Origin: Minutocellus sp. GHC0000111
Taxonomy: Eukaryota
Reading direction: 5' to 3'
Assembly (NCBI GenBank): GCA_977018835.1
Contig: OZ361259.1
Location: 2,604,001-2,668,000, forward strand
DNA: 64,000 nt
Shown: one piece after another, positions 23,972 through 54,384 of the stretch
Layout of the letters: each line of letters begins with the position of its first letter
Numbering within the stretch: the stretch's first letter is position 1
Translations under genes and position numbers: made by a program
Notes under the pieces: model-generated
Told to the model about the DNA's origin: nothing
What the model saw: the letters and a program-made list of their open reading frames with translations, nothing else
Databases searched by the model: none

Positions 23972-25519
23972 TTAACTCTTTTTAGCCCTTTTTTGTTGGT
24001 CGCCATTGGAAGCGCAGTCTGCCCCTCCTCTCTTTCGATCTCCTTTCCACTTGGTAAAGTTGTCAAGGAGACAATCCCAACACTGAGCATATTCCATCTG
24101 CCGTTGAGGGCAGGTTAACGCATACGAAGAACATTTGAGAGTGAGGCAAGTTTCAAACATAAAGGCAAGACGGCCCTCAAATTTAGTGGGTTTGCTGCAG
24201 TCTGCCTTGACGGCTCGCTCGTATGTGTCGGTATCGGGACCGTGTGGCGTCATGGTGTTATGTAACGACGCTCCTCCGGGGACAAAGCCCTCACGCTTGG
24301 CGTCATACTGGCCATAAATCAAACCCATAAACTCGGCCATGACATTTCGATGGAAACACGGCGGGCGGAAGGTGTTGTCATCGGTAGCCATGATCCTCGG
24401 CGGGAATATTACGAAGTCAGCTAGAGCCGTTCCTGGCTCATCGGACTGGGCTGTCAAAACAGTGTAGATGGACGGGTCTGGATGATCGTACGATACGCTG
24501 TTTATAGCGCAGAACTTATGAAGGTCGTATTTGAAGGGCGCATATGTTCCATGCCACGCAACGACGTTGAATGGACTGTGATCCGTCGTGCGTACGAACA
24601 GTTCATTGCCGAATTTGTTCACGATGTTTGATTTGGTGCAGGTATTACTGCTGTTCTCGTCGTACCAAGCGGTTGGGTAGAGAAAGTCTCTGGGATTGGC
24701 CAGTCCATTCGATCCTATGGGGCCAAGTTCTGGTAGAGCAAAATGGCCCTTGAATATTTCGAGGATGTAACCTCTACTTGCCGGTCCATTTGATGACTCG
24801 GAATCAGTACGATGAATATTGACACTAAAGACGATTCCGCGAGGGATGACGCATATCTCGGCCGGATGGACGACCAGTCTTCCCAGCTCTGTCAGCAAAT
24901 GAAGTGATCCAACCTGAGGGACAATCAATAAGTCCCCATCACTGTTGTACTAGTACATGTGTGTGTTGACGCCATCATCATCGGTCGCTGACATCATATC
25001 CGCATTGAACGAATAAAAGTGGATTCCAAGGCCAGACTTGGAGGCTGGATCTCCAGAACCCATCATTGTTTTCATCCCCTCGAGAAAGTTCACACTTTTC
25101 GTATTTTTGCCATCACTCGCTCCTTGCTCGACGAGAGGCATCGGGCCCCATCGCATCGGGTTGGGATCCAACTTGAGATCGGTCGACCAGTCGCATTGGC
25201 CAAAGTAGCGCACTTTCCCTTCTGCTTCGGAGTTGTACGGAACAAACGAGGAGCTACTTCCAGCCACGCCCGGTTGAATCCGATAGAGCCACGTTTTGCG
25301 ATTGGCCGACCGGGGCGCGGTGAAGGCCGTCCCCGACAGCTGCTCCGTGTACAGGTTGCCCGGGACTCGCTGGGGGTTGTTCCGACCACGGGGCAAAGTA
25401 GATGGCTCGGCCTCGCTCTCGTGATGGTTGTGAAATCCTGTCAGATACGTCAGCCCGTCCTGGGTGACGGTGTTCTGCGACGCAGAGGTAGAAGAGCTGG
25501 GTGGTACAGCGTCTGCCAT
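23972..25519 (-). pseudogene. HGD: Homogentisate 1,2-dioxygenase with an in-frame TAG at 24950-24952
   Basis: YLTGF.NHHESEA, LYTEQLSGTAFTAPR, WLYRI.P, YNSDGDLLIVPQ, LPELGPIGSNGLANPRDF, HPDPSIYTVL, FHRN, GGASLH...HGPD, LAFMFE; the two ORFs are in frame across HMY*YNSD. Confidence 0.9.
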
Positions 25520-34185: not shown

Positions 34186-35316
34186 CTATTCTGTTTCCGG
34201 ATCACCAACAACGCTGCAGAGCTTGCAGTTCAAGAAATTAGGGTGCGATTGAATAAAGCAAGAATGCACGGCGGTAACCACAGCCTTTTGCTTCTTTTTT
34301 CTCCCTCCGATTAATGCAACGTACTCTTTTACATCCCGGACGAATCTGCGAATCCGAGGAGAAGTGCTGCTTGCTGCTGCTTCATCCACTTCGCTGCCTC
34401 CACCGTGGCAAACCCAGGAGTGACAGCCGGCACACCACCAATTCGTAACAGCCTTGCACAGCATGCAAGCACCTCGAGCACCAGTCTTTCTGTGATTCAA
34501 ATCCTCCGATACTCGATAGATTGGAATGCCTCGACAAGCCTTGAATCGAAGCGCGGCCTCGTCATCTACGTTGCGAGGATCATCGTATCGTCGCTTGACA
34601 TTCCGCCTGGGAGTAGTGCCGTGGTACTGCAATACGTCAATGCCCACCACCTGCGGTGAAGGAGCCATCGGCACCGACACCTCGTCATCAGACACAGCTA
34701 CAGGACCACTAGCATCCTCCTCAATTCCTCCCAACTCATCTATCATCGCCAGAAGTGCCAGTCGAATCTCTATCAATATTTTCTCCAGCGAGTACCGCTG
34801 ACTCCCGGCATCGCGGTATCCATGGAGGCTGGAGTAGAAGGAGAGATCCTTCTTGGCCGAAGTGAGCTTGGCAAGGGAATGAATGTCAGACAGAATCAGC
34901 ATCAGCATTCGGTCGATAACCTTGCTCTGGCGCGAATCATACGGCAGCACCGCCCGATGACCTTCCGCGGCTTGGGTCTTCTCGTCGGAACCCCACTTGG
35001 TGTAGTTCCAATACTGGCACTGCATCGGTATAATTCGGATGGCTGGATTGAGTAATAAATGAGACGACATGTGATGAAAGTACCGAGTGCGCTGAGCGCA
35101 AAACGAACTCGTCGGTCTTGCCAAGACCGAATCACGAGTTAAATGCCGCTCAAGGAACATCATCGTCGTTCTCGGCTCTGTTCGGTGAAAGGCGACGGCA
35201 TCCGCACGACGGCTTGTGGCCAGCGGTGATGGTTGTGGACGGATGGTGATGTGGTGGCTGTTGCACGGGCAGGTGCGAGCTGCCGCTGCATGCATTGTCG
35301 CCATCGAGGATATCAT
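34186..35316 (-). mobile_element. piggyBac-like transposase remnant (C-terminal part)
   Basis: WNYTKWGSD resembles the piggyBac YNxxKGGVD third-Asp motif; C-terminal Cys-rich CMLC...WWCAGCHSWVC...SCFIQSH zinc-ribbon; no N-terminal catalytic half or TIRs identified. Confidence 0.55.
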
Positions 35317-35731
35317 GGTGGCGGTTGGGCGTACACAGTATGGTACTGGGCGAGGGGTTGGTCCCGGTTACGGAACGACCACGGTGGGAGATCGGAGACG
35401 GCGATTGCGTGGACGACCATGGTGGCATCATAAATGTGTGGTCGGATTGGGCTGTGGGGGTGGTGTTTCTTTTTGACCTGGGAAGTGCGATGCATCAGAC
35501 GTCTAGCTAGTAGTAGTATCTTTGCCACATCTCATTCTTTGTGCGATGCGACGGACGGACCGGTTTTCTCTTTATGTACGATACGAGAAGTCTACGTACG
35601 TCTTCGTACGCACGAAGCGCCTTCAAGATGATGGCACTTTTGCCGCCACCGCCTCTTTGGTACCGTAGCGTTCGCCACCGCCACTTCAGCAGCGCCCAAG
35701 ATACTAGCTAGTACTCTAAATCATCAGTGAT

Positions 35732-36874: not shown

Positions 36875-37073
36875 CGCATTGATATATTTTGTATATATAA
36901 TAGTGACTTATGTACATTTTTATTTGCATTCTGTGCATTGGCAATCTGTGGCGAATGGTATTTTAATGTCCGAGCTGGATTGAATTGAGTTGACATTATG
37001 TCATGGATCAGCAAGCGACCGGTGAGCCAAGGTTTCAACAGACACATCAGTGGCATAACACCACATGTCATTT

Positions 37074-37697
37074 TCATTCGCTTCCCTCGTCGTCGTCTTC
37101 GTCATTTTGCTTGTAGAATGTGCCTGTACTTTGCATAAGTAGATTGTATTGGCACATCAATCGAATCTCACGCTTGGCCACGAGCGTCAGCTCTCCCGGC
37201 AGCCACGAAAATCCATCGGGATCCGTGGGATCAGCACGAACCTGAATCTCTGCCGCAACCTTCTCTCCAACTCCCGGCCAAGTTTGTGTTTGAAACGTAA
37301 CACAACCTGCGGGTACGTTGGGATCTCCGGTAACTTTGACGGCCTCCAGGGCTGAGGTGGCGCATTCCCCGCGCAAAGTTGTTTTCACATTGACCCACTC
37401 TCTCCCGTGCGAGCCATAGAAATCATCCGAATACCACAGACCCTCCACATCACCCAACTTTTCTGTGATTGAATCAACAAGGACATCGTCTTCGTCTTCG
37501 TCGATGTCTTCCTCGTCGATTGTTGCGATGGGACTGTCCTCTACATTCGACGCCAACTGCTGACTCATCGGTCTGTTCGTTGTCGTCGCCATGGCCGTCA
37601 TGGCCGCGCCTGGTGGTGCCAGTGCACTGCGATGTGTGAACGCATTCCCCGGCGCAGCGCTAGTGGCGAGAAGAAGGAATGTCGACCACAACGGCAT
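37074..37697 (-). CDS. Plastid-targeted protein with DUF3506/EXECUTER-like (cyclin-D1-binding-type) beta domain
   Basis: Signal + GNA-FT motif; GLWYSDDFYGSHGREWV...LEAVKVTGDPNVPAGCVTF. Confidence 0.7.
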   Translation of the reverse strand: MPLWSTFLLLATSAAPGNAFTHRSALAPPGAAMTAMATTTNRPMSQQLASNVEDSPIATIDEEDIDEDEDDVLVDSITEKLGDVEGLWYSDDFYGSHGREWVNVKTTLRGECATSALEAVKVTGDPNVPAGCVTFQTQTWPGVGEKVAAEIQVRADPTDPDGFSWLPGELTLVAKREIRLMCQYNLLMQSTGTFYKQNDEDDDEGSE

Positions 37698-38029
37698 GGG
37701 TTCATTGTTGCGTGTGCGCCACTGCGCAACAGACTTCATGTGGTTTGGTGGTGTGCTGGTTGTGCGGTTGACGCTGCTAACGTCATCTGTGGGTGCTCCC
37801 CAGATTACGCAGGGCGCCGCTAAGTCAGCGCCATCGCCAGTTTTGAAGCAAGGCTCGCCTGGCGGCCATGTGACATCCCCACCGTCTTCGTCATGGGGCG
37901 GAGCCGAGGACCCTGTGGATTGAACACGCAATCACTTCCAACGCAGTTGACCCCCTTTCCATGCCATTTGCAGGACATCTTTCCATCGTCGAGCTGGTGC
38001 TTTTGCGCATGCGATGGGAGGAAGAACTG

Positions 38030-38235
38030 TGCTAAGAGGTCCTAAAGCTAAGCTAGATAGATATAGCTAGTAGAGGTTAATAGGACCTACGTAGATGAGT
38101 AGATGAAAAATGGGCCATGGGAGATGTCGTTGGCCCATGGATCAATGGTCAGGAGAGGGCACTGAGTCAGTGTGGTCTGATCACCGTACGTACCGTACGT
38201 ATGTACACGTACGTACGTATCCCACGGCATCAACA
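38030..38235 (-). repeat. 3' LTR (206 bp)
   Basis: Direct repeat of 44089-44284 with 5 substitutions, an 8-bp duplication (gtagatga) and a 2-bp indel; preceded on the minus strand by purine-rich gcgagggtg (PPT-like). Confidence 0.95.
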
Positions 38236-38294
38236 CACCCTCGCAGATCAATGACTAGTGCCATTGAATCTACATGTAGAGTCCTAATTGGAAT

Positions 38295-41200
38295 CTACAT
38301 GTAAGTAGACTGGTCGCATGTCGACATGGTAGCGGGCGGGATGGTGCTTTGTAAAATAATCGGCCAAATTTTGCGCTCCTTTCCGCCAGTGCACCTGGAA
38401 TTGTCTCTGTCGTTGCTCTGTGCGATCTTGGACCCCCAGCAGAATCTCATGTCCACAGCCTTAGACCGTCTTTGCTTGACGGTTTTATTGGCGATTCCAG
38501 ATGCTGTAGAGTTGTCAACGACGATAGCAGTAGGGGGCTGCGGGTGACCCATTTCTTCTGGTGCTGCCCGGATTGGTGCTGCATCTTTCATGTTGAAAAA
38601 TAATCCTCCCAATTCGGCTTCAGCGGCTGAGGACATTACATGCTTGATGACATTGGCATTGACGAGGATGGCTCCATTCATTGGTGGCATGGGATCACTT
38701 GAGTCAGGCTGGCGGTGCGGGTCCTTAGGTCGGGAGCTTAGGTAGAAGCACCCTCCGAGCTTGCGTCTTGATTTCGGGGCTGACAAGCAGGAGGCAGGCG
38801 TCGCTGTGCACATGCAGGATCATGTCTGACTTGACGTATCGAATGACTGCGTCGGGATGGGTTGCAAGGTAATCTAGAAGCTTCTTGGCATCTTGTCGAG
38901 TGCGCTCGGTAGCTTTGGATTGTTCCGCTGAGATGCCATTGAGCGCCGGTAAAATTGTTGAATCAATTGCTCGACCACAGTGCAAGGAGCTGCCCACCAC
39001 CTGTTGAATTTCGTTGATGCCTTTGGCGTCGAGTGGTGGTGAGTCGTCTTCCGGTTCTGGCAGCTGGGGTCCCGGGCCATGCGTCGGACGATTCCATCGA
39101 CATGGCGCATGCTCGGGCCGTGAGGGGCGGTCGTGTTGGAACTTGTGTGGCGCATCTCCTTGACGTAGTTAGGCATAGATAGATCCACCCATTTGGCCTC
39201 GTAGTTCCACTCGAGTTGAACACCACAATAAAGTTGGCCTTCCCAATCGGTAGTGATCTTATGCTTGGAGTTGAGGGCCTGAATGAGATGGTCTGCATGC
39301 TCTTTCCCGACACACTTTACTCCAAAATCGTCAACGGTTAGGCAAAAGGTAATTGGGCGGGTTTTGTGCCTCCAAAGGCCGGCAGTGCGCTTGCAAGGGA
39401 AATAGCCATGGGGTTTGAGATGCTTGACAAGTTGATCGTAGGCTAGGCGCCCTGCCTGGGGTAATCCATGCATTCCGCCATCGATTCTGACCAATGCTCG
39501 ACCATTCTTTACTTTGTCGTGGAGGTCGTAGGCTTCCATGACTTCGTCGGGGATGAGAGCTACTGGCGCCCACATCCATTCTGGCTCTGGCATGGTGCTA
39601 TTGAGATAGAAGTCACTGACATCAATTCCCATGAAACGAGCGTTGTCTGTAGAGATGACGCTGTTGAAAAGTAACGTTGCAGTCAACATTTCAGCGGTCG
39701 GGGTCGAGACTGTACCAGGGTAATGAATTTTGTCGCCTCCTGCAGTCCATCGAACTCGATTGGGATTTGGTTTATGGGAGCGATAGTCGGCGACAATGCG
39801 GAGGTATGTGGCTTTTTTCCCCCGAGGCAGTTCGGACCAGTGTGGACGAAAGCCATTGTATTGGAGGGAATGCTAGCACTGTTTCCAACTCGGCCGTCCG
39901 TTAGCCGTCCAATTTCATCGATGTTTGCTTGAATGAATTGGTCCCTCATGTTCGTTTTGAGGAGGTCGCGGTGTTCAAGCATTGCACCAGCATCGGGATG
40001 GACGACGGCGTTAGCAAAGTGTTGGAGGTTTGGTAAAGGCGAGAAAGCTGCCATGTTGGCCACGTGGTGGGCACTACGACGAGATGATGGCCGTGGGGGA
40101 GGGTTCCGATGTGGAATGTACCCTCGCTGACGGTGTGATCGTCGTCGAGGTGGTTTGGCGGTCGATGGTTTGGACTTGCTTGTCAATTTTGCTGGAGCTG
40201 GTAATGTTGGAGTGGTGTCGATCGTTGGAGACTTGCGTTTACGTTGCCGACGGGAGGTGGGGGCATTGGAACTTTGATTGGATGTTACGACGGTTGCATC
40301 GTCGTCATGATTGTCATCATCGTCGCCGTTGGGCTCGTCTACTGCAGCCAAAGGATTGCAGTAGTTGGAAGAAACTGACGAGCGAGGTGGCGCGTTGGAT
40401 CGACGTGATCGACGGCTTTTAGTGGTGGCTGCATCACATGTGGAGGATTTTGCCACCCTCGGAGGTTGCTGGGGCTGAGGTAACGGAGCGTTGGGGTTGG
40501 AGACAAGGTGACGGCCTACTTCAGTCTCGTTCATCTCTTCTACATCGTCGTCCTCGTATTTGATTTTGTAGCACTTACACTTCTTGTCAAATGCAACGAC
40601 TCTGCCCTTGTAATTGCGATCTCCAAACACTTTGGCGACGATGGTACCGAGGCGGAATCGTTGGGACTCGTCATCGTTCTCCAGCACCCTCGGAGCTGCG
40701 GTTGTCTGCATCGTCTCATCAGAGGCGGAGGTGGCAGATTCTGCTGGGGTCACGCTGTTGAAAATCTCGGAGAGCTTTTCTAAAGCTTGACGATGCTCGT
40801 CTCGAAGGGGAGCAAGGGGTGCCGCTGGATGTGGATTCTGTAGAGCGTGCAGGAGTTCATGAGCTGCGACTATTGCTGCATCGGCCGACGACGTTTTGGG
40901 TACCGGAATCATTTTGGGGAGCCAGACGAGTGTGTTACCAGTGCGTTCCGCCCGAGTTTCCTCAATCCAAACCTTGTAACACCGGTAGTGTTCCATGGCT
41001 GTACCGACATAGTACCCATCAACGCCATGCGGGGACCAAGAGCCGCGTGCCGAGGGCATCTCGTGAAAGATGACCTTGCATCCGAGGGGGCCGAGAGGCG
41101 TGCGATTGAAATCAAAGCCGCCATTGAGTTGCTCGTACGCTGATAGTCGAGGGTTGACTCGGGATGCTCTCAGGAAATTGAGGGTCATTACCGCCTGCTC

Positions 41201-42498
41201 CAGCAATTTATCCCACAAGATGAGGGGAAAGTCGGGATCGGTGCCACAGAGAATCGCAATGAAATGATTCTTAAAGGTTCGAATGGCTCGTTCGGCCGCA
41301 TTTCGGCGGTGGGAGTGCGTTGGGGTCAATTGAAAATCTACATCCTTTTCTTCCATGAACTCCTTCAGCTCTCGACTCACTTCATTATCCAATCGTTGCA
41401 ATTTTGGGCGAAATCCTCGCTTGGAGAGGTATTCGAAAATAGTTTGGTACGCTCGGCGCATTTCCGTTCCCGATCGGCTTTTCATTGGTTCGGCCAAGAT
41501 GCTGTTGGAGTCATAGTCATAGACGACCATTATGCACTGGTGGCCAGAAATAGACGATGCCAAGAAACGGCCGGGCTGATCTGAGAAGATCTGGCCCGTT
41601 ATGTCATGACAATCAGCAAAGACATAGTTGGTGCGCTGTTGGTGTTGTGCCGGGTGGAGATCCTGCTCGGTTTCGTCCACCCCAGGGAGAGATTTTGGCG
41701 TAGCCATCGACCGTTTGGGCTTGGTCGACCTGATGTTCTTGCGCTGCTGGTCTAAGTGACCTTTAATCATCGGTGACCTTTAATCATCGGTATCGACTGT
41801 GGCATGTGCTTACGTACAAGCTTTGATGTGAGGCCTGGCCAAGATCTATAAAATCCCGCATCGATTGCTTTGCACCAGGTAGATAGCTGAGGACTGCCAG
41901 CGCACCAATGAAAAAAGGCTACACGTTCCGGAACCGTCTCCTGGGCAATTGCGGCGTTGGCAGCATGTTGGATGACGTTGGGGCCGGGGAGCGGCGACAT
42001 GGTGGGCGAGCAATTAAGATCTACCATCCACAATTTCGTTGAGGGGTCTCGTTTACCTTGCAAAATGACGGTGTTGTCCTTGGCGATGACTACCGAATCC
42101 TTGTCGAAAGTGGCAACACATCCATCGTCACACAGCTGCCCAATCGATAGGAGCGATGATGCCATATTATTGAAAACATAGGCCTTGCTAGCCGATGGGG
42201 AAACCCCAGGGAGGCGAAGCGTGGCCTCGTGGGTGTTCGTCATTGTGCTGTTATCCAGAAGGGTGACGCTGATAGGAATTGCTGTCTGTTTGACGTTGAA
42301 AATAGGGCCATCGCACGATAGGTGTTGGGGCTTCTGGACAAAATGTCCCGTCGTTCCAGCATCTGCTGCGAGGACGATTGGCTCTTGAGTTGGAGGTTTG
42401 CTTTTTGACGTAAGAAAAGCTAACGAAGGCGGGGAGGAGGTGGATTCAGATGTGCTATCCTCCATTTTATACTGATTAACATCCACCGTCCCTCCCGC
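38295..42498 (-). pseudogene. pol: Retrotransposon pol (protease, integrase, Tudor-like domain, RT, RNase H), multiply frameshifted
   Basis: PR DAGTTGHF; pre-integrase SP..STW..AI..G...SWPGLT; IN SDQPGRF, RLDNE, NAAERAIRTFKNHF; RT DVSDFYL, GLPQAG, LTVDDFGV; RH SDAS, SSAAEAE, VDNSTA, ADYFTK; a 17-bp tandem duplication at 41756-41789 breaks the frame. Confidence 0.92.
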
Positions 42499-43784
42499 TC
42501 AGTTACGACGCGAGCTACCACCGCAAGGATTGTACTTGGTGGCGTTATCAACGTGGTTGGGCCCTTTGCAAGTGCATTCAAAGCTGGGGTGGTTGGACGA
42601 ATAGCCGCACGTGTGGCAATGGTGGCCTCTGGGGAGGATCGACTGCAGTTCCCGCTTCTCCTGGTGGTTGAGGTTAGGACCTTGGCCTGGGAAGTGGCCG
42701 GCGCCGTTCTGCTGGCCACCGCCGCGGTAGCCTCCACTGCCACCAGCATGGTTGCGTCCCTCACGCAGAACGCGGTTCTCGGCCTTGAGTGAAGCTATTT
42801 CTTGGCGAAGTTTGGCAATGGTATCATCCTTCTCGTTGCTCTTTTTGGCAAGGTTCGCCATCATGGCTTGGTTGGTCTTGAGGGCTTCGGTGGTGTCAGC
42901 CAAAAGGAGATCGGCTCGAGAAAGAAATGGATCGTCCGAGGCCGATGAGGCCAAATTCGCGCCATGATATCCTGCCGCTTCGGTGGTGGTGTTGGCCATC
43001 TTCTTATCATACCAATCGCGGAAGTCCGACTGCATGTTGGCCCACGTGCGTTCGGCCTCCGGTCTGTCGTCCCAGTCCTCGCATGCCTTCTTTGCCAATG
43101 AGAACCTGCGCACGGAGCGGTAGAACTTGGAGACCTTTTGCTTGTTGGTGAAGGGTTCGCCGGCCGTTTCAAACGCCTTGAAGACTTTGTTGAATATGGC
43201 GATGTGGGTGTCGATGGGTCCCCCGTCGTGCTGCTTCTCGAGCTGCTTCTCTAATTCCTCCTTCTGAGTCTCGTTGAATTTCAAGTAGCGATCGGTAATG
43301 CTGTCGATGATTTGGCGGATGGTGACTGGCTGGAAACCGAGCATGTCATCTTCGAGATGATTGATGTAGACGGCGTCGATCGAGTCGAGGAGGAGATTCT
43401 TGAGCGCCGTGTTGACTTGCTCGTACAAGTTGCAGTGGCCCTTTTCGATGTGATGTCCCCGGATTGCACGATCGCGTTGGTCTAGATTGGCCACGGCGGG
43501 AATGGTGGGGCTGGGGCCAGGATTTGCCGGAGGCACATGTGGTCGGCCGTTACTTTTGGTGGTGTGTTCGGCATCGCTGACGACGAGGCCCAAATGGCCG
43601 AGGTTGTGGTCATTGCACCCTGCTGGAATGCTGCTGGCCGCCGCGCTTGTTGAAGTTCCTTGAGCGCTTTGGCAACACGCTCGCGTTGGGGAGGTTGTCC
43701 TGGGTCATTCATACGTGTGATTAACTTGGTGGGGAGAATCGGCGCTGTGCCGAGAGGTTGGCCAAAAACTGCGTCGGGATTCAT
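42499..43784 (-). pseudogene. gag: Retrotransposon gag (frameshift near 43600)
   Basis: GHLGLV motif, TW...F motif, zinc-knuckle-like CHTCGYSSNHPSFEC and terminal NPCGGS. Confidence 0.8.
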
Positions 43785-44088
43785 GCTGGTTTTTCAGTCA
43801 GCGAAGACAGGCAGCACGGACGGCGGTGTTGCTGCTGCGAGACGTGTGATCGACAGAAGGTTCGATCCAGAGAAGTGTGATCGATTGGATGGGTCGATCT
43901 GGTCAGGACTTTCGGGGAAGGGATTGGATCGTCGTTCCAATATTGTCGAAAGAAACGGTCGTTTTGGCCGATTGAAGATGTGTCGGTTTTTCTTGCGTGA
44001 CGAGTGAGAACCCAAGACAAACCGGTGAGGTGCGAACCGAAATGGGGCGAGCACGGGTGGAAAAGATGTGTCACGTAGTAGGTAGGTC

Positions 44089-44284
44089 TGCTAAGAGGTC
44101 CTAAAGCTAAGCTAGATAGATATAGCTAGTAGAGGTTAACAGGACCTACGTAGATGAAAAATGGGCCATCGGAAATGTCGTTGGCCCATGGATCAACGGT
44201 CAGGAGAGGGCACTGAGTCAGTGGTCTGATCACCGTACGTACCGTACGTATGTATACGTACGTACGTATCCCACGGCATCAACA
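44089..44284 (-). repeat. 5' LTR (196 bp)
   Basis: Begins TGTTGA and ends TTAGCA on the minus strand; contains (TACG)n runs and a tgggcca/tggccca hairpin. Confidence 0.95.
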
Positions 44285-44981
44285 AACTGGCTGGCATCGG
44301 CCTTGCCAAGAAGGCACTTGCCTAGGCACACAGTCCAACAGTGACTGCTCCCCGCCAGCCAGTCGGCTGTGGATCTGCAACATCATTGCCGGTTGCTACC
44401 GCCCCGCAGCCGTGAACGACTCACTAAGCTCGCGCCCTCTCGATGAGCCACTGTTGTTCATGGAAGGAGAGACGACACCTACCTCCTCTCCACCTTCTGT
44501 CCCCCGACTTCCCGTCATGCAAGCTGCTTCTTCAAAAAACAAAAGAAGAAGAAATAAAATGGGGGGGAAGTCAAGCCTTTTACTGTCCGGGAGCAACGAT
44601 TGGGGCGGGCGAAAATTCGGTTGAGGAGTGCAAAAAGAGGTGTGCAGAAACCACTAATCAATCAAAATTGTTGTAGTTGTTTGTCAACCAGAGGTCAGGT
44701 TGATCTCGGAGATGGACCAAAGGTAGAGCAGGGACCGGGGAGGCAAAAGAGAGGAGCAGACCCATCGTCGGGAAAGTCATTTTGGCCCTTTTTTTCTGAG
44801 CAGGCATTGGTCTACTTGCTCGGGTCTACTTTGACACGAGTAGACGTCGGAAGTTGAGGCATTCTACTCAGGCGGCAATCAAAGACATGATCATTCAAAT
44901 CCTCTCACAAATCAAGCATTCGACCAAAGAGTAAAGCATCCACTTCCACTAGCATACATTTCCACTAGCATCCCAACCATC

Positions 44982-52058: not shown

Positions 52059-53601
52059 TCAATAAATCTTTCGTCGCCGAGCAGTAGTGTAAAACCACTT
52101 TTCATCAAGATACGCTACAGGAATGTTGGGATCGGTCGTAATGTCCTCCCACTTTTCGATCCAATCAAGTCGCTTCCTACAATGTTCGGGGGTGAGCCTC
52201 GGCTTTTTTCTCGATCGACGACTTCTCCTTACCGCCTTGCTTTTTCCACCAGCGAAAAAGCTGAAGACGATGGAGACTAATTGTCAGCCTGTCTTCATCT
52301 GGAGTAGCTGATTTTGTGCTCATACAGTCAGCTAGCTCCTTAAAGGTTGCCATCGCACCCTTCATCCGAGTAGCATGCCAACACAGCTCGCGGAGACGTC
52401 CTGGCTCCTTCTCCTCGATCATGTCCGTGCATGCCTTCCTTCCACGAACCTCCTTTCTGCCGATGGGATTGCTGATGCCATCAGTAAGGCTTTTGTAGAG
52501 CTGGTCTCTCCACTTGTAAAGCTGAGAACCACCGGTTGACTTGGCATAACCGTGATCGTACGCAACTTGCCGACACGCGGCAGTTGCAATTTGTTGCCGG
52601 TCTTCATGCGTGCGAGTTGGGTCGCCGTGTCCCCACCAATCCGCGAGAGCCACGGCGCTGAACCGCATTCTTTCATTCGCCTGCTTTTCTTTTCTGATTG
52701 GCATTGGTTCGGTGACGGTTGCATTGGGACGAGGAGGACGGAGCATGTCATCGTTGGCCATCCGAACAACAAAGTCGAGGCCGAGAGCGACCTTTACCTG
52801 TTCATCAATGTCACTGGAGGTGGCACAGACAACGGAAGTATCGGCTCCTCCTAAACCTTCATCATTGGGGGAGGCTGCAGCTGCTTCAGTGGCGGAAGTA
52901 TCACCAGTTCCCTTCAGTATGCTGAGGAGACTTGCTGGCATCCAACCCAGTTTCTTGGCCTCGTCGACTAGTGATTTCACTCTTGCTTCGCAATGCGCTG
53001 ACTGTGCCTCCTTTCTGTGAGCTGACAACCTCTCACCTAGCTTAGTAGCTAAGACAGTCGAGCGCCCAGAGAACAGAACTTCATCGGGATTTCTTTTCTC
53101 GTGCACCTTCTGTCCCTCCGGTCCAGAGAATTTCGGGTGGTTGTCCTCCTTCTTTTTACGCAACCTGTGAGCACAAACACAAAGCGCCCTGCGTCTTGTC
53201 TTCCCTCTCGGCCGATGCGTCGACAAGTGCAACTTCAAACTACAATGCTCCTTGAGATGTTGCTGCATATCCTTCCATTTTTCCTCGTTGTACTGTAGCT
53301 CATACTTTCCTCCACCGACGGACTTGGAACGCAACAAGTCGGCCTCGATGAAAGCAGGGAGGACGTCTTCCCATTTCTGCCGAGAACCAACAACACAAAT
53401 GTCATCTTTGCCGCAGGAATCGGGGGTTACTCTCCACCACAGATCCTTACCAGCCCTTCGAATGACATCTGCTGCAAGGAGGAGAAAGGCCATGGGGATA
53501 GGAGGAGGGGCCGTCCTCTTCTTCGCCGACGACGGTGACGGTTTGGCGGGCAAATTTGACCGTGGCCGCTTCTTCGACGACGTGTTTGCGCTCGGCGACA
53601 T
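52059..53601 (-). mobile_element. Tc1/mariner-superfamily transposase remnant, truncated after the first catalytic Asp
   Basis: After a frameshift in an A run near 52205 the reading continues KPRLTPEHCRKRLDWIEKW...VAYLDEKWFY, the KP.LT..H...R..W and DEKWF motifs of mariner (DD39D-like) transposases. Confidence 0.75.
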
Positions 53602-54384
53602 TGTGTTTTCGGCTCAGCTGCCGCCTTTGCCGCCTTCCTGGATGCCTTGGTGTTGCCTCTCTTGCTCCCTGAGAACGAAGTTCTGCTGCGTTTGTATTTT
53701 TTGGGCGTGGTCTGGTTGGTCGTCGTCATCGTCACAAAATTTGCGCGGGTTGCGGTGTTGTGAGGGTGTGCGGGGGACCAAAAAATACATGTGTTCCTGC
53801 CAGAATCTACTGGACCTGCGAATTCAGTGGATACTACTGGTCGGTGGCAACCTACTGAATGAGCAGGTCCAGTAGATATCCACGAACGAGTTGAGGAGCA
53901 TTTGCGTTCCTCCCGAAGAGAACATCGACTAACAAAACACGTGGTGGGAAATGAGAAATGGGTGCAAGAATGACCTTTTTTAGGGGTTATTGGTATACCC
54001 TCTACAAATCCTCTGAAACCGAAAGGTACCCTGTAGGTCCTCTCTACATGTAGAGGAATTCCGGGTCCTAAGCAAGCGTCAGGTGCGAACCTGTAACAAA
54101 AATAGGCACTAAATTTTGCTCGATTAGTGCAATCGGCGCCTCCCAACCAAGCAAGCCAACCGAACCGGCGACCGACCGACGCGACGAGATGGAGACGAAG
54201 CGAAGCCGCGCCGACGTGCATGCAAGTAAGTTGGCATGACTGCACGTACCTAGGTACCACTCCACTGCCTCACCGCCTGACTCTGCTTCTCCATTGCGTC
54301 AAATCTAAGTAAGGCGATCGTAACGTCACGCTCATTGCGAAGCGTCTCCTCTTCGCTCTCTGGTCGCGCCTGCATCATATTATC

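Follow-up and report, generated by a model that had tools for sequence, protein, structure and literature searches.

Two multicopy elements in the window

The window, that is, the whole stretch of 64,000 nucleotides analysed here (Minutocellus sp. GHC0000111, contig OZ361259.1), carries two multicopy elements, from unrelated families (Table 1). The first is a Ty1/copia retrotransposon copy, assigned by its TG...CA LTRs, its target site duplication and the position of the integrase ahead of the reverse transcriptase; it is young, with five differences between its LTRs, and dead. Its integrase shares 59% identity with a protein of P. tricornutum, and the named homologs of the element are from diatoms. 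The reverse transcriptase region matches RVT_2 with an E of 9e-6, which is under the curated cut-off, a Pfam search with the gag-like frame gave no gag match, and the label of the protease region draws on a protease-like motif. Membership of the CoDiI/CoDiII copia lineage is defined by placement in a reverse transcriptase tree (PMC2806351).

The second element belongs to a large family, with 275 members in one cluster. Elements of the Tc1/mariner type are defined by DDE/D catalytic motifs and terminal inverted repeats. A protein of the family, P0310, carries LDEKWF, MDNA and PRSPETNVLDLG, which we take to be Tc1/mariner-like motifs; neither Pfam nor PDB supported any name for the family, and no terminal repeats were found around the truncated window copy.

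Table 1. Features of the two elements and positions of former TA steps (T position) in the copia copy
Feature	Position	Strand	Remarks
Ty1/copia LTR retrotransposon copy (gag-PR-INT-RT-RH)	38030..44284	-	frameshifted; one of a multicopy family
5' LTR, 196 bp	44089..44284	-	TG...CA ends; TA>CA at 44140 (n=1)
3' LTR, 206 bp	38030..38235	-	TA>CA at 38206 (n=1); tandem duplications of 8 nt and 2 nt
Target site duplication, left, 5 bp	38025..38029		same sequence as right
Target site duplication, right, 5 bp	44285..44289		identical to left
gag-like frame (stop to stop)	42499..43704	-	labelled by place within the element
Protease region	41767..42498	-	labelled by position and motif
Integrase region	39843..41779	-	includes PTM/DIR17-like Tudor domain at about 40514-40648
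Reverse transcriptase and tether	38821..39842	-	broken by 2-nt insertion at 39144
RNase H region	38295..38819	-	frameshift at 38433
Second multicopy element, 5' part (transposase-like)	52177..53613	-	same TA>TG/CA spectrum
Former TA, now TG/CA, 38-kb part	38390, 38440, 38456, 38559, 38937, 38978, 38981
Former TA, now TG/CA, 39-kb part	39080, 39101, 39221, 39262, 39313, 39469, 39495, 39620
Former TA, now TG/CA, 40-kb part	40072, 40134, 40312, 40359, 40572, 40578, 40603
Former TA, now TG/CA, 41-44 kb	41242, 41535, 41558, 42249, 42360, 42463, 42620, 44069

Loss of TA steps in the two families

At least 30 of the approximately 187 TA steps of the window copia copy have been lost, and the plus strand now reads TG at 15 of these and CA at the other 15; the sites listed extend from 38390 to 44070 and their count is a lower bound. 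An earlier note on this DNA had drawn attention to Cys and His codons where copia motifs normally have Tyr, and to a few comparable non-Tyr changes. The codons that it named are in place (CAT at 39470-68, TGT at 39314-12, CAT at 39263-61, CAC/TGT at 38982-77, GCA at 39497, TGC at 41536, CCA at 38561 and the TGC of DMRFCW from 38453), and at nine of its 12 Tyr sites (MHG, FGVK, KHK, LH, CGRA, HQC, DMRFC, QVH and GGC) sister copies carry Tyr or the other derived residue. For SDASC and LEH, Tyr ancestry comes from distant relatives only, the sister copies seen sharing the change. Both non-Tyr sites held, since other copies read CTA at 38560 and 12 of 15 other copies have Val at the GCA codon.

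Two of the five LTR-LTR substitutions are TA/CA pairs (38081/44140 and 38206/44255), as the earlier note had it, and another is a CG/TG pair; thus, the process works after insertion. The LTRs, although rich in TA, are barely changed (2 of 44 as against 30 of 187; p 0.052), a pattern left unexplained by a defence directed at repeats in themselves. When contig DNA was compared with the window copy, 31 of the 40 differences listed, out of 111, fell at TA sites, and the same variants were found again in contigs from four runs and two studies. At the hottest TA sites the majority of copies already carry the change, His accounting for 663 of a depth of 800 at 39313-14 (X1), although contig depth is distinct from copy count.

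The mutation spectrum of the copia family was established from 35 sister-copy proteins and the window copy; the sister copies, taken to be from the same species partly on their 92-100% identity, are known as proteins, so that non-synonymous changes alone were counted, some of which may be shared by descent. A>G changes after T were found at 68 of 128 testable sites, as against 16 of 696 after the other bases (5/202 after A, 5/229 after C and 6/265 after G; Fisher p 7e-48), bearing out the excess in TA context that the earlier note had predicted. Weighted by copy, the rate is 0.118 after T and 0.002-0.003 after other bases, a gap of tens of times. With the window copy excluded and ancestry drawn solely from distant relatives, 57 of 207 Tyr had changed, compared with 63 of 3124 other residues, and 23 of 24 column-level changes away from Tyr led to Cys or His. 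Since distant relatives have Tyr, Tyr, and hence TA, is the ancestral state, which rules out CG as the ancestor of the TG/CA pairs; both Cys and His occur among sister copies in seven of 19 Tyr columns, each of which requires two independent TA changes. The reverse change, CA>TA or TG>TA, was found at 3 of 179 sites. CpG decay in the same copies is mild (12/192 vs 11/577, p 0.005), and TA change is about 16 times faster in both families (0.118 vs 0.0072 in copia, 0.218 vs 0.0129 in the second).

Tyr, Cys and His segregate within columns, which rules out an alternative genetic code as well as a family-wide Cys/His state, the finding that would have undone the claim of the earlier note, and near-intact copies exist (P0002, P0121 and P0128 with one change each, P0281 with 0 of 45). 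A metagenome scan with the window reverse transcriptase and a search of viral contigs with a 30-nt pattern gave no close DNA relatives, and further searches gave distant loci only, at 35-60% identity. Cys or His stands at 13 of 1679 Tyr positions in 92 such loci and at 5 of 19 in the window element, a comparison uninformative on taxonomic spread because the loci were chosen by intact motifs and best score.

The second family, for which 91 proteins and the window copy were compared over 410 columns, shows A>G at 37 of 52 TA sites, with a rate of 0.218 as against 0.0022 after A, 0.0009 after G and 0.0086 after C. Its two strands are nearly equal (0.223 and 0.213). This symmetric spectrum in a transposase-like family counts against the view that the changes arise in RNA, by ADAR-like editing or by reverse transcriptase error during retrotransposition. 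Copia does pass through RNA, its sense changes are slightly in excess (41 vs 27 antisense) and A-to-I editors are described as preferring U before A (bioRxiv 10.64898/2026.01.13.699255). However, the window copy has 15 changes per strand and TA differences between its LTRs, and TAG, the motif of ADAR, is disfavoured (changed at 7 of 28 sites, compared with 37 of 48 for TAC); an origin in RNA is scarcely credible.

The flanking bases matter in both families, with purine-TA-pyrimidine (RTAY) the preferred context: in copia the rates are 0.287 for RTAY, 0.078 for YTAY, 0.036 for RTAR and 0 for YTAR, and in the second family 0.379, 0.175, 0.072 and 0.005, respectively. RTAY is palindromic as well as the hottest class, which would suit a methyltransferase that marks its A in repeats, the 6mA then being deaminated or misread much as 5mC is at CpG, and CpG decay does run in parallel in the same copies. 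Yet a site that reads YTAY on one strand reads RTAR on the other, and the two differ about two-fold, which points to a single-strand read-out. Known symmetric 6mA in eukaryotes lies at ApT, and A>G stays at background where the preceding base is A, C or G. We hold the 6mA route to be decidedly unlikely.

A translesion polymerase placing G opposite T in TA context, during repair synthesis in heterochromatin, would act on DNA with the strand symmetry observed, and would also cover the short duplications: perfect tandem duplications make up nine of the ten insertions examined in the window copia copy, and the second family has 22 in-frame insertions to 4 deletions. The signature of Pol eta, however, takes in AA as well as TA (WA); here AA is at background (5/202 in copia, 0.0022 vs 0.218 in the second family) and transversions do not rise (0.0011 and 0.0007). 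We find this explanation quite unlikely.

Composition of the elements and of host genes

The copia element has 25 RTAY sites in 5853 bp, where the remainder of the window predicts 69 (p 8e-10), and the second element has 8 where 17 would be expected (p 0.012). Within the window, RTAY loss is confined to these two multicopy elements: the observed/expected ratio is 0.31 and 0.41 within them and 0.75-1.04 outside. Against targeting stand a piggyBac-like stretch (34186-35367) that shows no RTAY depletion (1.02), and some gene kilobases that are equally RTAY-poor, with 4-5 sites per kb (9001, 29001 and 37001). Plain TpA, which the earlier note had proposed as a measure, does not single out the element (0.49, compared with 0.59 for the window and 0.33-0.70 for genes); RTAY alone does so. 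Over the reverse transcriptase and RNase H, the TpA ratio is 0.55, against a median of 0.66 among 88 relatives. In the host gene HGD, none of 11 Tyr columns has Cys or His, compared with seven of the element's 21 (p 0.066), selection also acting to retain Tyr in the gene. A Cys at HGD 24358, considered as a host-gene TA change, proved ambiguous, the six closest homologs having Trp there. The case for targeting draws on composition and on the comparison with this one gene, and the mutation may be confined to mobile DNA.

A genome-wide TA bias, visible in transposons only because selection is absent there, or an assembly artefact, would fit the low TpA ratio of the whole window, in which the element is no outlier. 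Against this stand the contrast in RTAY between the elements and their surroundings, the recurrence of the variants across runs and studies, and the uneven load. Among 30 copia copies the TA load is overdispersed (chi2 75, df 29, p 6e-6), copy age and position varying too, and is uncorrelated with other divergence (rho -0.23, p 0.22). Bias or artefact is highly improbable.

Origin of the changes and related systems

That transposons here undergo TA>TG/CA hypermutation is, in our judgement, nearly certain; its spectrum, direction, strand symmetry, flank rule, action after insertion and uneven load between copies are established. It is likely due to a DNA-editing enzyme, and as its cause we tentatively favour adenine deamination of the TadA/ADAT2 type, acting after insertion in silenced repeat DNA. 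A mobile element would insert, and TA steps in the chromosomal DNA would then become TG or CA on either strand, as the enzyme, presumably guided by the silencing chromatin of copies that also show mild CpG decay, recognised 5'-R-T-A-Y on the strand being edited and deaminated A to hypoxanthine, to be copied as G. Conserved Tyr, Val, Ile, Thr and Leu codons would be lost in this way, and copies disabled without stops.

Because A>G and T>C are complementary, damage to thymine leaves an identical sequence record. A TET/JBP-type enzyme might oxidise the T of TpA in silenced repeats, through 5hmU to 5-formylU, the mutation being a by-product of the silencing mark; 5-formylU can mispair with G, giving T>C. 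Such enzymes are described as producing 5hmU in dinoflagellates (PMC11572971), where 5hmU is enriched on repeats, with a TA/TC preference in early work that, according to the same source, was not recovered in B. minutum (PMC11071213). Here, however, TC sites are at background (6 of 265, read as A>G after G), and our literature search gave no paper on a diatom TET/JBP-type enzyme among the matches listed. A thymine lesion is, on this evidence, unlikely. Of the RIP-like adenine process put forward in the earlier note, the direction of change, its occurrence on both strands, its action after insertion in multicopy mobile DNA and its opposition to RIP and CpG decay all stood; the record does not tell adenine from a thymine lesion, nor does it separate direction by homology or copy number, or defence from a by-product of silencing.

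The process is not undescribed, as TpA hypermutation is reported for integrated viral DNA of Bigelowiella natans (Mettrop et al., bioRxiv 10.64898/2026.01.13.699255), the sole match in our literature search, which found no description of the signature in diatoms. Two further candidates were dismissed, bioRxiv 2026.08.24.746577, where the term is TPase, and PMC12344493, which has no mention of TpA. In B. natans, as here, A:T>G:C changes are restricted to TpA and yield TpG and CpA; there they are localised to foreign DNA, and here they may likewise be confined to mobile DNA, with a load that varies between copies. The preprint gives a rate per generation raised about 1000-fold, not constitutive but uneven between lines, and a candidate ADAT2, an enzyme of this class being likewise proposed as a hypothesis (bioRxiv 10.64898/2026.01.13.699255). 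That system is a rhizarian carrying a silent NCLDV insert in single copy, as well as a virophage region, followed in mutation-accumulation lines, with transposons covered by composition only; ours is a diatom with two multicopy transposon families, in which copy-by-copy polymorphism takes the place of a measured rate, and it adds the RTAY rule together with short tandem duplications, which are frequent, the main text of the preprint giving no trinucleotide rule and no diatom.

Like fungal RIP, the process makes dinucleotide-specific transitions on both strands and degrades repeats after insertion; unlike RIP, which makes C>T changes that create TpA and stops, it destroys TpA and raises GC, and C>T at CpA was found at 3 of 179 sites in copia and 4 of 92 in the second family. 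RIP requires RID/DNMT4 and premeiotic homology pairing. Many diatoms encode DNMT4, a RID-related protein of unknown function (PMC9998398). The CpG decay of diatom transposons that are methylated by DNMT5, as described in that source, also gives TG and CA on transposons, at a low level here; the TA process differs in its ancestral step, fixed as TA by Tyr in relatives, and in its speed. With ADAR and TadA/ADAT2 it shares A>G with a 5' U/T preference, and the preference for TAC resembles the TadA substrate, the targets being given as A in 5'ACG for TadA/ADAT2 and 5'UAG for ADAR (PMC10661471). Their natural substrate is RNA, save for reports cited in the B. natans preprint, whereas here both strands of chromosomal DNA are changed and, in contrast to ADAR hyperediting, the changes are not sense-only and TAG is disfavoured.

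A broader reading, which we regard as rather doubtful, is a diatom mirror image of RIP, in which a natural DNA adenine editor would read RTAY in all classes of silenced transposon and spare their gene-facing ends, its repair intermediates leaving short tandem duplications; if Bigelowiella has it too, the system would be an ancient defence of the genome across SAR, from which a native DNA adenine deaminase could be obtained. What is new is that a signature known from one alga is carried to a diatom and to ordinary transposons, where it is in progress within young families. A process previously described in one preprint on one rhizarian alga is now found in a second supergroup. In diatom genomes, TA mutation biases the dating of transposons, the consensus sequences built from them and estimates of GC. 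The RTAY rule provides a fingerprint for an enzyme hunt; a DNA adenine deaminase of natural origin would be important to base editing, and whether non-fungal eukaryotes possess an analogue of RIP becomes a testable question in culturable diatoms.

Loss of TA dinucleotides from the copia element and its family

The copia element (see the table) has TG...CA-ended LTRs, 206 and 196 bp long, and is flanked on both sides by an identical 5-bp target duplication; small insertions break its gag-PR-INT-RT-RH frames, and this copy is already dead through frameshifts. Its integrase has named homologs in Phaeodactylum, Fragilaria and Attheya, and a neighbouring gene carries DUF6824, which is typically a diatom domain; both point to a diatom as the likely host. 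The family is multicopy: contigs from four runs in two studies stack on the element, and numerous long contigs encode 36 high-identity proteins (mostly 92-100% where the frames align); P0127, a protein identical to the window copy, was excluded from this sister set. Downstream of the integrase core lies a PTM/DIR17-like Tudor domain (40514-40648, minus strand; PF21743, E 9e-13), possibly a chromatin reader that steers insertion, by analogy with the chromodomains that do so in other elements.

Features in the window
Feature	Position	Strand	Description
Complete Ty1/copia copy	38030-44284	-	Paired LTRs, TSD, gag-PR-INT-RT-RH frames
Insertions in the copia copy relative to its family	38091, 38170, 38433, 39144, 39840, 41756, 43634, 43816, 43830, 44075	.	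10 examined
Truncated transposase-like member	52177-53613	-	Large unannotated family; full-length relatives up to 831 aa

The codons named by the earlier note, most of them Cys or His where copia motifs normally have Tyr, were checked and are correctly placed. Among the 40 best-supported of 111 differences from other copies, 23 are TA elsewhere and TG or CA in the window copy, and two are TA in the window copy and TG or CA elsewhere; six fall on the partner base within a TG/CA pair, four are a TG or CA that reads CG elsewhere, three are transversions and two are other transitions. By contig and protein evidence, 30 or more of some 187 internal TA steps are gone from this copy, 15 of them to TG and 15 to CA. 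Two of the five differences between the LTRs are TA/CA, as had been claimed; since the two LTRs are identical at the moment of insertion, these changes arose afterwards, in chromosomal DNA. At 42621-42622 an adjacent double change (TAA in other copies, TGG here) is the only AA change among the differences listed.

The context spectrum was tabulated over 834 codon columns, each with at least three sister copies; every possible non-synonymous change was scored once per site, and ancestral codons came from parsimony with outgroup help. It bears out the predicted excess: A>G was found after T at 68/128 sites (67/126 when contig bases were not used for context), and after A, C and G at 5/202, 5/229 and 6/265. 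C>T was found at 12/192 CpG sites and, before A (the direction of fungal repeat-induced point mutation, RIP), at 3/179; transversions were found at 34/3358. These site counts are the safer figures, because copies may have inherited changes in common. As ancestry was partly parsimony-based, the test was rerun without the window copy and with ancestry from distant relatives alone: Tyr was changed in 57/207 cases, against 63/3124 for other residues, the destinations by column being Cys (14), His (9) and Phe (1), with Cys and His co-occurring in 7 of 19 Tyr columns. The TA load is uneven among copies (p = 6e-6). Two distant copia relatives with RT-RH matches, L047 and L012, show very strong CpG loss (observed/expected 0.07 and 0.27) and intact Tyr.

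A second family and a common flank rule

The transposase-like frame belongs to another large family (21 matches, one cluster with 275 members). Its long members bear motifs that we take to resemble the Tc1/mariner type, which would mean a family without an RNA stage; Pfam and PDB comparison gave no support for this assignment, and there was no Pfam match. Over 91 proteins plus the window copy (410 columns), 37 of 52 TA sites were changed, 34 of them in at least two copies. The A>G rate was 0.218 after T, against 0.0022 after A, 0.0086 after C and 0.0009 after G, and the TA rates on the two strands were 0.223 and 0.213.

On the strand of the A-to-G change in copia, TAY (Y, pyrimidine; R, purine) was changed at 57/76 sites and TAR at 11/52 (p = 1e-9). 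Copy-weighted rates descend from RTAY (0.287) through YTAY (0.078) and RTAR (0.036) to YTAR (0), an order that recurs in the second family, and RTAY accounts for 13 of 23 DNA-level TA events in the window copy. The process acts on DNA, on both strands, after insertion and on TA alone, with RTAY first.

Distribution along the window

Plain TpA observed/expected, suggested by the earlier note for comparing elements with genes, fails to set them apart. RTAY does so: its density is 4.3 (copia) and 5.6 (second family) per kb, against 11.9 across the remaining 55.7 kb (p = 8e-10 and 0.012), with observed/expected of 0.31 and 0.41 against 0.75-1.04 outside. In HGD, a host gene, 9 of 11 conserved Tyr columns are kept and none reads Cys or His, against 7/21 in copia (p = 0.066), a comparison confounded by selection. 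At 24356-24358 (minus strand) HGD has Cys where homologs carry Trp or Tyr, which could be a TA change or TGG>TGT.

The copia LTRs (38030-38235 and 44089-44284) are TA-rich (observed/expected 1.59), with runs of GTAC, and nearly unmutated. TA was changed at 2/44 LTR and 30/187 internal sites (p = 0.052) and RTAY at 1/20 and 19/44 (p = 0.003), the LTR pair being blind to sites altered alike in both; the LTRs seem spared. In the gene adjoining the 3' LTR (37001-38000, cyclin D1-binding domain) TA observed/expected is 0.31, with 4 RTAY per kb, which may reflect spread from the element or codon use. The frame at 34186-35367 (minus strand), with a Cys-rich end and presumably piggyBac-like, had no match in a Pfam search and is not RTAY-depleted (1.02); it is perhaps single-copy or domesticated.

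Candidate mechanisms and known systems

The favoured proposal is that an enzyme of the TadA/ADAT2 type deaminates adenine where chromatin is silenced; the preference for 5' T and 3' pyrimidine and the single-strand read-out agree with it. ADAR, whose preference for UAG is given alongside that of TadA-type enzymes in PMC10661471, disagrees with the flank rule found here. The changes may instead originate in a thymine lesion, 5hmU or 5fU (PMC11572971 and PMC11071213), in a 6mA mark on the adenine, or in an unusual repair polymerase.

Perfect tandem duplications of 2-17 nt make up 9 of the 10 insertions examined in the copia copy (8 from the best 12 of 43 indels, plus 2 LTR insertions). Sister proteins of the second family have 22 in-frame insertions against 4 deletions, a count that leaves out three off-frame cases, the window copy's own insertion and one ambiguous case. 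In mammalian cells such duplications form at staggered breaks (PMC8355091). Tying them to the TA changes is a guess, because they do not coincide with TA sites.

The process works similarly to RIP, but its chemistry is not that of RIP. We infer a role in defence, and put it no more firmly because a TA change, unlike RIP, creates no stops. Diatom DNMT4 is related to fungal RID and without known function (PMC9998398), and the CoDi lineages are described in PMC2806351.

The TA-to-TG/CA pattern that the earlier note saw is real and strong, and mostly as described there; the signature, however, is already reported. Mettrop et al. (bioRxiv 10.64898/2026.01.13.699255) describe TpA>TpG/CpA changes in two viral inserts of B. 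natans, about 1000 times faster than background, and suggest ADAT2 as the enzyme; their supplement may hold a flank rule. The features with a clear outcome here, restriction to TpA and products on both strands, agree with the pattern in our two families. Our literature search, which covered few subscription journals, did not find the process reported for diatoms or transposon families. A signature known from viral inserts in B. natans is now seen in a different supergroup, on transposons.
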